Of a stretch of DNA of 24,750 nucleotides, positions 22,317-24,449 are shown in pieces. The stretch comes from a virus (taxonomy: Duplodnaviria > Caudoviricetes), in IMG/VR virus record IMGVR_UViG_3300020042_003181, positions 1-24,750 of that record; one strand, given 5' to 3'. A program made the position numbers and the translations under genes. The notes under the pieces were generated by a model that worked only from the letters and a program-made list of their open reading frames with translations, searched no databases and was not told where the DNA came from. Within the stretch, counting starts at the first letter, position 1. Each line of letters begins with the position of its first letter.

Positions 22317-22323
22317 GTATGTG

Positions 22324-22812
22324 ATGGACGATGAAGTATTCAAACAAAAACTGTCAGAAGTAGCAGAATGGCGTGTGCCCAAACTCAAAGAATGGGAAGT
22401 TGAACAAGCCAAGCAAAAGGCTCGCGGCAAAGGCCGTGCTTCACTTGAGGACTTGTACGAGGAAGAACACAACAAAATATTCTTAGAAATATTCAATGGT
22501 GTGAATCCCACATATGCTCCAGAAATCACCAAAATCAAAATACAAGCAGTGACCTGCGGTGACTGTGGTGAATTATGTGAACAAGGCAGACGCACTGAAA
22601 TCAAGTTCTGCGCCGCTGGTAGAAATGAAATGCCCTATCGCAAAGAACGCTGTGTGGAATGCAATCTCTATCGTGATCCTGTGACTGGCAAATTCTCAGT
22701 GAGCATGGGCAGAGCTGCTCACGTGTTTGCCCAGCATGCCAAACTGCTGTGGTTAGAAAACAAATCTGCTAAAAAAATCACATTATCTCAAGATTCTACC
22801 TCAGACAAATAA
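22324..22812 (+). CDS. Hypothetical protein with Cys motifs (CGDC...C...CVEC), putative Zn-binding
   Basis: Long open frame. ATG 22324 (or GTG 22321) lies just after TATAAGTA (22312-22319) with no SD sequence. Confidence 0.75.
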   Translation: MDDEVFKQKLSEVAEWRVPKLKEWEVEQAKQKARGKGRASLEDLYEEEHNKIFLEIFNGVNPTYAPEITKIKIQAVTCGDCGELCEQGRRTEIKFCAAGRNEMPYRKERCVECNLYRDPVTGKFSVSMGRAAHVFAQHAKLLWLENKSAKKITLSQDSTSDK

Positions 22813-22816
22813 ATAC

Positions 22817-22938
22817 ATGAGCAGAGACAATTCCGTTATTCTACCTGGATATGGGCTTGCTGTCATACCAAAGAGTTTTTCTATTGCCATTGAGAAACCG
22901 CTCTGTTAGAAACGTCCGCCTTGGGCGTTTCGCCTTTT
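22817..22938 (+). ncRNA. Candidate small multi-stem RNA between a TAAATA motif and a terminator-like hairpin
   Basis: TAAATA at 22810-22815. Closing stem 22820-22826/22901-22907, hairpins 22846-22870 and 22875-22898, final hairpin 22909-22931 followed by GCCTTTT. Confidence 0.55.
22909..22938 (+). terminator. Terminator-like hairpin
   Basis: GAAACGTCC / GGGCGTTTC form a 9-bp stem (one G:U) with loop GCCTT, followed by GCCTTTTGT. Confidence 0.6.
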
Positions 22939-22987
22939 GTGATATCACTTTTATCACGTTATTTTTATCTCGTGATAAATATTATCA
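22939..22987 (+). promoter_or_regulatory. Cluster of TATCAC/GTGATA inverted repeats overlapping a GATAAATA promoter motif
   Basis: Palindrome GTGATATCAC 22939-22948, TTTATCACG/CGTGATAAA 22950-22979, TGATAA-ata-TTATCA 22973-22987, and TAAATA 22976-22981. Confidence 0.55.
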
Positions 22988-23007
22988 GCAGGCAAATACC
23001 AAGGCAC

Positions 23008-23256
23008 ATGATGGCAACTCAAAAATATCTCAATCAAGCACTACAGTTAGCAACCATGGCGTTGCAGTACGCTGAATCACTGACTCCTAGGCAAAGACGA
23101 ACATTCCGTAGATTTCTCAAAGATTCAAAACTAGGCCACGAAATAAACCAAAAACAAATCACTAGAGTTCTAAGGCACTGTATCAAGGCACATCATCATC
23201 TAACACCTAAGGTTAGCGGGCCAGTTTGTAATACCGCTGTGGAAAAACTAGGGTAA
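23008..23256 (+). CDS. Small basic hypothetical protein (82 aa) whose 3' end overlaps the structured RNA
   Basis: ATG ATG at 23008/23011 downstream of the TAAATA motif, reading MMATQKYLNQ...PRQRRTFRRFLK...VEKLG. No canonical SD. Confidence 0.5.
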   Translation: MMATQKYLNQALQLATMALQYAESLTPRQRRTFRRFLKDSKLGHEINQKQITRVLRHCIKAHHHLTPKVSGPVCNTAVEKLG

Positions 23257-23590
23257 TAACTAGACACGTGACATATTGAGGCACCCCCGTTGCTACGGCA
23301 ACTATCCTGAAAAATTGGAAGTGGGTCAGAGGTTGAAAGCAAAGATAACCAACGCATTGATATAGTATGAATGTTAGCATACGACAACACCAGCTATAAA
23401 CATCTAGACACTAGGAACGAGGTCTAGAATGCTTTAACAAGCATATCGTGGCAGGAAGGAAAAGCACAGAGTCCTTTAGCATATGGTGTATAAAAATTAC
23501 CTGCTTCCCAAGTCTTGGCTGAGATAACTCACAGAAAGAGGACGGAACCTGTAAAAAGGTTCCGTCTGACTAAACAATCTACAGAAAGTT
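23205..23590 (+). ncRNA. Candidate large structured non-coding RNA (~385 nt), family not recognised
   Basis: About ten consecutive stems, a cUACGg tetraloop, two possible pseudoknots and duplicated loop motifs, in a mostly ORF-free stretch. Boundaries are approximate. Confidence 0.7.
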
Positions 23591-24026: not shown

Positions 24027-24055
24027 TTGACATCTCACCAAATTGGTGCTATACT
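24027..24055 (+). promoter_or_regulatory. Sigma70 promoter, copy 1, with palindromic spacer
   Basis: TTGACA (24027-24032), 17-nt spacer, TGn-TATACT (24050-24055). The spacer holds CACCAA-A-TTGGTG (24036-24048). Confidence 0.9.
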
Positions 24056-24111
24056 AACACTATGAACTGCAAATGGCGTATTGACCGTTTGGCTCATATT
24101 GGAGATTTGAA

Positions 24112-24358: not shown

Positions 24359-24387
24359 TTGACATCTCACCAAATTGGTGCTATAAT
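24359..24387 (+). promoter_or_regulatory. Sigma70 promoter, copy 2 (perfect consensus) with palindromic spacer
   Basis: TTGACA (24359-24364), 17-nt spacer, TGn-TATAAT (24382-24387). CACCAA-A-TTGGTG at 24368-24380. Confidence 0.92.
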
Positions 24388-24449
24388 TATTACATGAACT
24401 GCAAAAAGCACATTGACTTTTTGGCTCATACTTGAACTGGAGATTTGAA

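Follow-up and report, generated by a model that had tools for sequence, protein, structure and literature searches.

A heavily pseudoknotted phage RNA with twin repeats and a tail of DNA-type hairpins, and its possible role as an RNA-primed replication origin

Priming of replication by a structured transcript is established for the plasmid ColE1, in which several hundred bases of structured non-coding RNA (RNA II) are followed by hairpins of single-stranded DNA (ssi), as described in PMC5043065, PMC5935869 and PMC5703827, and which by the account in PMC5043065 requires no plasmid-encoded initiator. The origins oriF and oriG of phage T4 are primed through R-loops that, as far as PMC3016281 describes them, need no specific sequence or ornate RNA, use middle promoters and are shut off in the late phase. 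Primase origins of the phages G4, St-1 and alpha3 are marked by GCGNNAGC mini-hairpins, which according to PMC13037366 are DNA-specific and much less stable as RNA; the same source describes the N4 promoter as also formed by GNA hairpins. GOLLD, ROOL, OLE and HEARO are described as large ornate RNAs of unknown function that are linked to phages or environments. The closest catalogued motif to the RNA reported here is Polynucleobacter-1 (RF01718), from fresh water and estuaries (Weinberg 2010, PMC2864571).

Here, we analysed a stretch of 24,750 nucleotides (the window), which is the entire virus record IMGVR_UViG_3300020042_003181, a tailed-phage contig rated 86% complete that encodes portal, scaffold, capsid, tape measure and endonuclease VII. 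An element of about 390 bases follows the tail genes and is itself followed by two sigma70-like promoters, at 24027 and 24359. Our results support the view that 23200-23590 (+) is a conserved, heavily pseudoknotted, structured RNA of the + strand, whose family is absent from Rfam 15; after the second copy of a direct repeat the element switches to DNA-type hairpins. A sequence-only reading had proposed a large, pseudoknotted RNA of an unrecognised family. That interpretation is supported and its description of the structure as a whole partly confirmed: every sequence it listed lies where it was placed, and the DNA-type tail, reaching about 23710, was absent from it. The features are as follows.

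22809..22815, + strand: ATAAATA box, candidate T4-late-type promoter of the small upstream element (box enriched before genes)
22816..22940, + strand: small conserved element with a terminator-like hairpin at 22909-22931, first part of the cassette (similarity by eye)
22975..22981, + strand: ATAAATA box, candidate promoter of the large RNA (box upstream in relatives)
23186..23190, + strand: AGGCA motif directly 5' of the structured core (at most 60 nt before the anchor in 97/123 loci)
23200..23590, + strand: large pseudoknotted RNA, ends placed at the homology edges
23200..23377, + strand: pseudoknot 1, CTAAC 23200-04 with loop 23373-77 of hairpin 23365-82 (covariation)
23214..23239, + strand: stem TAGCGG/CCGCTG, fixed by the search pattern (580/582 paired; compensatory changes in G012, G017 and G020)
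23248..23263, + strand: hairpin CTAG/CTAG (4 pairs above all nulls)
23273..23363, + strand: variable domain, closed by stem 23273-82/23354-63 (covariation, helix counts)
23387..23489, + strand: pseudoknot 2, GCTA/TAGC 23393-96/23477-80 extended by ACACCA/TGGTGT (covariation)
23403..23444, + strand: hairpin TCTAGAC with a conserved GGAACGA loop, then a variable hairpin (helix counts)
23448..23504, + strand: GCAGG/CCTGC and AGGA/TCCT stems, with pseudoknot 3, GTG/CAC (23448-50/23465-67)
23531..23538, + strand: direct repeat copy 1 (ACAGAAAG), in the 3' domain closed by GTC 23512-14 / GAC 23568-70
23541..23566, + strand: last hairpin (G·U substitutions)
23581..23588, + strand: direct repeat copy 2, whose template strand is the predicted pairing site of copy 1
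23652-59 and 23672-79, + strand: two GCGACAGC (GCGNNAGC) DNA mini-hairpin motifs (sequence; PMC13037366)
23689..23707, + strand: DNA-type hairpin with a GCA (GNA) triloop (sequence, tail loop counts)

The homology edges that define the RNA are sharp, at about 23190-23200 on one side and 23593 on the other. Comparison with shuffled sequences, a check proposed with the sequence-only reading, gave a folding z of -2.79 for the + strand (1 of 100 shuffles equally good) and -0.37 for the - strand. Covariation, another such check, was scored by our own background-corrected G-test, not R-scape, against 20 tree-simulated nulls, on 97 homologues below 93% identity that remained from 205 full-length matches after 183 with both anchors and 133 unique sequences had been retained. 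Above all 20 nulls stood 23 column pairs: 19 Watson-Crick pairs, three cross terms inside helices and one identity pair from repeat to repeat. Over 11 helices, 5062 of 5119 cells are paired in these 97 sequences, and G·U outnumbers A·C by 555 to 26, which fixes the + strand and favours RNA. The G·U part of the earlier argument for this strand therefore stands; its appeal to a UNCG-type cUACGg tetraloop fails, because the TACG loop is not conserved. Near-invariance (at least 97% conservation) extends over 115 of 386 columns and is partly a product of selection, since loci were collected with fixed 5' or 3' patterns.

The individual helices were counted in the 97 family members or in the 28 members of the window's subtype. 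Two pairings proposed earlier proved wrong, and two real pseudoknots, 23200-04/23373-77 and 23448-50/23465-67, had been overlooked. The bases assigned to TATAG/CTATA (337/485 paired only, with 86 A·C cells) pair instead as the stem that closes the variable domain, and the supposed knot CCAGTTT/AAATTGG is without covariation; at one position 12 of 21 rows have A·C, and some members have a shortened partner loop. The other proposed knot, ACACCA/TGGTGT, is real and register-variable (112/153), and the adjoining GCTA/TAGC (380/384, three pairs above all nulls) is its well-supported part. Pseudoknot 1 is paired in 484/485 cells with three pairs above all nulls, and pseudoknot 3 in 288/288 with five pair types, its single pairs lying just below the null threshold. 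The proposed 5' stem TAGCGG/CCGCTG holds, and its loop GCC (23220-22) may pair with GGC (23517-19), a pairing that is invariant and without covariation. The variable domain contains ACCC/GGGT, the hairpin GTTGC/GCAAC (139/139, several pair types), TCC/GGA and the hairpin GGTTG/TAACC (111/125), both hairpins as proposed. Further stems seen from the letters were borne out by the homologues: TATG/CATA, in full GTATG/CATAC (481/485, covarying), TCTAGAC/GTCTAGA (191/196), ATGCTT/AAGCAT as a hairpin of variable length (126/155), GCAGG/CCTGC (480/480, covarying), AAGGA/TCCTT (396/480, the inner four pairs holding) and the terminal hairpin (892/969). TGAG/CTCA is weak (271/367), and the duplication of the loops AAAGCAAAGA and AAAGCACAGA is not conserved.

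Several other readings of the fold were tried and rejected. A - strand terminator at 23541-66 is contradicted by G·U substitutions, the hairpin working on the + strand. GGAAG/CTTCC (23317-21/23504-08) appears complementary, yet the loci L352 and L052 alter the 5' side together with TCC 23305-07, which favours the local stem. Readings as group I or RNase P, made by eye, do not fit the order of the helices.

Is this RNA a member of a catalogued family? The proposed scan of Rfam 15, with models for GOLLD, ROOL, OLE, HEARO, group I/II introns, RNase P and tmRNA, gave no match at gathering score, and the matches at E<=10 were chance miRNA/sRNA matches only. ARAGORN found no tRNA or tmRNA, and the statement that the RNA is not tRNA, tmRNA, RNase P or a group I/II intron thus agrees with both searches. 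Compared with GOLLD, ROOL, OLE and HEARO as these are described, the family is shorter and has twin repeats and a DNA tail. Blastn found nothing among phage isolates or among 72,556 plasmids, including RNA II and the ColE1 origin. With Polynucleobacter-1 it shares the aquatic setting and the CTATCC...GGA part of the domain 23273-23363, where the CACUAUCC...GGA junction subdomain of the window's subtype was recognised by eye and is unscored; a different 5' domain, pseudoknot 1 and the 3' domain set the family apart. By model it lies outside that motif: RF01718 (threshold 37 bits) matches neither the window at E<=10, nor 5 other records, nor 20 loci at gathering score. We found no published description of the family in the literature, of which the Fremin 2023 supplement was covered in part: six motif strings are absent from 6 of its files (PMC10690425), and other files may list short fragments. 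New here are the full covariation map, the measured switch from RNA to DNA hairpins and the presence of the element in complete small phages in which no replication genes were recognised.

The family is modular, with another 5' half in some loci and another 3' half in others. The chimeras L085 and L289 join the 5' half of the window's RNA family to a 3' half that resembles the Polynucleobacter-1 tail, and in L216, L225, L228, L170, L176, L181, L195 and L173 the family's 3' half follows a different 5' half. Homologues occur in hundreds of viral contigs from lake and sea phages; from pattern scans their number is put at about 680 stretches in IMG/VR and some 570 in metagenomes, and a profile confirmed 113/120, 77/120 and 120/120 loci of three scans. 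In the GTDB genomes only two short MAG contigs carry the element, and each of five large records examined has a single locus. A search with the ORF that overlaps the RNA recovered the element in 33 of 35 loci; this ORF (23008-23256), which overlaps the 5' end, belongs to no family, and its matches stem from the conserved DNA of the RNA.

Transcription of the element is only weakly indicated. The transcript check gave homologue contigs that cover parts of 23195-23521 in 7/7 RNA-Seq runs from 6 studies, at low depth; the runs were selected for holding the sequence, contigs give no view of strand or ends, and carried-over DNA is possible. Some contigs extend upstream; in most runs the contigs end before the 3' domain. 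Depth is about 2-15 per contig, though contig depth is a poor measure.

The key feature of the element is the duplicated ACAGAAAG, whose copies at 23531 and 23581 flank the last hairpin. The duplication had been noticed from the letters, and in the homologues it is conserved as identity: the two heptamers are identical in 186 of 192 loci before dereplication, with 12 different identical heptamers, and in 91 of 97 after it, including 26 of the 29 non-consensus rows. By parsimony, copy 1 changed 28 times, and on 23 of these occasions copy 2 underwent the identical change on that branch. Five of the 7 heptamer columns, and also 23539, covary most strongly with their counterpart in the other copy. 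Within the RNA, only 6 of the 29 non-consensus rows contain a fully complementary 7-mer, at scattered positions, and no covarying complementary partner was found. Identity without an internal partner is what is expected if copy 1 pairs with a product templated by copy 2, either the DNA template strand or cDNA. Divergent siblings (L069, L329, L161, G017 and G020) likewise have twin repeats around a hairpin, of unrelated sequence.

After copy 2 the hairpins become DNA-type. In the 200 nt downstream, 111 sequences contain 73 (+) and 65 (-) cGN(N)Ag loops against 3.5 and 2.0 in shuffles, an enrichment of cGNAg/cGNNAg hairpins of about 20-30 fold on both strands; inside the RNA the counts are 3 (+) and 2 (-) against 6.3 and 3.7, and the flanks are also unenriched. 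AGCG-N1-4-AGCGA occurs in the tail of 82 of 111 homologues, and the commonest motif of the family's tail is GCGTTAGC. The window's own tail folds as DNA no better than shuffles (z -0.3), and a minus-strand cGNAg hairpin beside copy 2, present in many homologues, is absent from the window. The GCGNNAGC and cGNAg mini-hairpins are shared with the G4, St-1 and alpha3 primase origins and with RSF1010 ssiA, which as described in PMC13037366 belong to single-stranded DNA phages or plasmids without an upstream RNA.

The small element 22816-22940 is the first part of the cassette, and text like it stands at the same place in G010, G011, G012, G013 and G017 (by eye); 22809-22940 may act as a small RNA or contain an ORF of 30 codons, and it is covered by RNA-library contigs in X2 and X4. 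A pattern derived from the small element recovered just one near copy, along with two unrelated phages. Upstream, a cysteine-rich protein of about 160 aa without a family (22321-22812) precedes the cassette in most small relatives and is a candidate activator or initiator; an Atlas search with this 162-aa protein gave 0.84 at best and no lead. A 16-nt direct repeat with AAGGCACAT (22997-23012, 23181-23196) flanks the small ORF directly upstream of the RNA, as though this ORF were an insertion. Beyond the element, a 77-nt direct repeat (24027-24103 / 24359-24435, 82% alike) holds in each copy a near-consensus sigma70 promoter with a CACCAAATTGGTG palindrome in its spacer. The ATAAATA box is, by the T4 consensus letters, a candidate T4-late-type promoter. 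It stands before a gene 44 times out of 59 across 11 small records (background 0.108; 4/81 for a control word) and 88 times out of 114 in 3 jumbo phages, and a TAAATA box lies 60-230 nt upstream of the RNA in G009, G012, G017, G020 and L326. PMC2988020 describes T4 late promoters as a TATA box of 8 bp that gp55 recognises.

The window is one of a common lineage of siphophages, 26-35 kb in size, with 485 scaffold relatives. Among 18 lineage records searched, four have the RNA and one the tail only; G009 also has the RNA. At the same locus, G017:28360-28900 (L550) and G020:17500-18060 (L539) carry a diverged sibling of the RNA that shares its 5' motif and has a CACTACCC...GGATG subdomain and twin repeats, the latter different in sequence. 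Other long non-coding, hairpin-rich stretches stand there in G013:1300-1900, G019:20700-21250 and G010:6000-6800 (L533, L538, L541), that of G013 retaining the same DNA tail; none has an Rfam match. Family-B polymerase, DnaB-type helicase and late sigma were not detected in G012, G009, G011 and G014, and the jumbo control G001 has all three; no replication protein turned up among the 25, 80 and 43 selected ORFs that were scanned against Pfam/PHROG. G012 carries direct terminal repeats. Since an AAA ATPase of unknown role occurs in G010, G011 and G016 and many small ORFs are without annotation, a cryptic initiator is possible.

Most members of the family follow a gp55-gp47-gp46-GIY-YIG operon in T4-like jumbo phages, which encode a full replisome. 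The operon starts with the late sigma factor in three jumbo records and continues with SbcD and SbcC in G001. As the jumbo phages' ATAAATA box is present in the small phages and polymerase, helicase and late sigma are undetected there, helper dependence is possible, and a small lineage without recognisable replication genes may borrow them from giant phages with the same element. Repeated capture by small phages was considered and does not follow from the tree of 32 window-type RNAs, in which six small-phage rows need three label changes, because a single clade passes the AU test (p = 0.087). Phage satellites (P4, PICI, cf-PICI, PLE, I55) compare in their possible reliance on a larger phage; measured against their description in PMC12772148, the small phages differ in encoding their own portal, terminase, capsid and tail, in having no integrase among the scanned ORFs and in being nearly absent from GTDB genomes. 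What they appear to be without is replication and late-transcription proteins (4/4 small records). In a bolder picture, which we consider less likely than not, the window would be a helper-dependent siphophage of ~30 kb that works within the factory of a jumbo phage, with its own virion, without replisome or late sigma and with jumbo late promoters, and would have captured an interchangeable RNA origin, the RNA being a self-anchoring, possibly catalytic primer that would grip its template by a freely variable 7-base repeat.

By analogy with ColE1 RNA II, our preferred reading, with a probability of about 0.5, is that the element works as an RNA-primed replication origin whose transcript re-pairs with its own template. 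We infer five steps. RNA polymerase would enter from the ATAAATA box in small phages or from the gp55-47-46 operon in jumbo phages. The folded core and the last hairpin would place repeat copy 1 beside the just-transcribed DNA. Copy 1 would pair with the template strand of copy 2 and seed a persistent R-loop, so that a change in one copy would need the same change in the other. A nuclease, or else the RNA, would generate a 3'-OH that is extended as the leading strand. The displaced + strand would fold the GCGNNAGC and cGNAg hairpins and load helicase and primase. What we observed as a basis for this proposal is the fold and its strand, the co-changing repeats, the hairpin switch, the single locus per record and the small phages in which replication genes went undetected.

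The G-stretch of ColE1 RNA II pairs with template DNA and offers a parallel to the twin repeats. Like ColE1 (as far as the cited accounts describe it), the small phages have no initiator gene that we recognised, many of their ORFs being unannotated, and here too single-strand hairpins, of putative function, lie downstream of the RNA. The family differs from ColE1 in having no similarity to plasmids, in its phage setting, in a repeat sequence that is free to vary and in three covarying pseudoknots; a scan for sigma70-like promoters found none on the - strand within the element that could serve an antisense RNA I, and priming is predicted by analogy. With T4 oriF/oriG, as described in PMC3016281, the locus shares T4-like hosts, a transcript-primed origin (here a proposed one) near a gene-orientation switch, which lies at 4-6 kb in three syntenic jumbo phages, and A+T-rich DNA downstream. 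Several observations count against an origin. An RNase HI gene is absent in 5/5 large records, where a host or T4-type enzyme is possible. The complete relative G016 has no such RNA at this locus, and blast detected it in no more than 3 of the 11 records whose completeness is 90% or above. The minus-strand cGNAg hairpin missing from the window, the unremarkable folding of its tail and the possible cryptic initiator also weigh against the proposal. The 115 near-invariant columns exceed the obvious need of a simple primer. Late-type promoters, which the small phages appear to use, would be an odd drive for an origin; T4 closes its R-loop origins late. GC and four-fold-site skew were tried as origin evidence in three jumbo records and are uninformative: skew at four-fold sites tracks the coding strand and gives no independent support.

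The RNA may instead be a ribozyme or the guide of a neighbouring nuclease, copy 1 directing either the nicking of the copy 2 template strand or cleavage of the RNA, with the start of rolling-circle or recombination-dependent replication or the marking of a packaging site as the outcome. We consider this rather unlikely. The highly conserved, multiply knotted core would suit it, as would the GIY-YIG gene that 112 of 127 loci have no more than 900 nt upstream (type judged by eye), and it explains the repeat identity equally well as an origin does. The small phage G012 has both the RNA and a SegE-type GIY-YIG gene, of the jumbo type, at G012:9813-10238 (L531), downstream of the RNA and not upstream. 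Against it stand the 15 loci without GIY-YIG nearby, among them the window, G009 and L326, and the missing resemblance to group I/II, RNase P and self-cleaving ribozyme models. Four of the 15 have a different nuclease-like ORF. In L059, L069, L089 and L282 the GIY-YIG gene is replaced by another conserved ORF, which by eye looks like a resolvase. The obligate adjacent nuclease of HEARO/OMEGA-like modules is thus not found here. At the 3'-OH step this explanation overlaps with a primed origin.

The repeats could also be two sites for a dimeric phage or host protein, with the RNA as a scaffold or a transcription switch between operons and the DNA hairpins serving the next promoter. This fits the location of the element between operons in both phage types, where an ATAAATA box often follows directly, and the GNA hairpins of the N4 promoter; we judge it improbable, as at least 12 repeat sequences with same-branch changes would demand a new protein specificity each time, and G009 keeps the tail despite a next gene on the other strand. 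Less probable still is an RNA acting in trans, of the GOLLD/ROOL kind, whose repeats are kept alike by local gene conversion and whose tail is unrelated: size, pseudoknots, aquatic phage habitat and the homologue contigs in RNA libraries speak for it, and the constant arrangement of repeat, hairpin, repeat and DNA hairpins among diverged siblings, together with a library depth that is weak for an abundant stable RNA, against it. That the stretch between the repeats templates a reverse transcriptase jumping from copy 1 to copy 2, as in the template-jumping mechanisms of telomerase and DRT2, we regard as highly improbable: a realigning product would suit the conserved ACA core and repeats that are identical and have no internal partner, yet an RVT_1 gene is absent in 5/5 large records (one 95% complete) and among the scanned small-phage ORFs, which also sets the element apart from DRT2/retron ncRNAs, the spacing of 35-77 nt shows no preference for multiples of three (42/43/66 of 151), and the DNA-type tail is left unexplained.

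If the element is a primer, it would be a sequence-defined RNA origin for T4-like jumbo phages and would explain how phages of ~30 kb without replication genes are copied. It would further hint at what sister RNAs such as Polynucleobacter-1 do, and would point to phage parasites that borrow replication and transcription, not capsids. Large ornate RNAs of bacteria and phages are mostly without a known job, and twin 7-base repeats beside a DNA-type tail provide a sharp handle.
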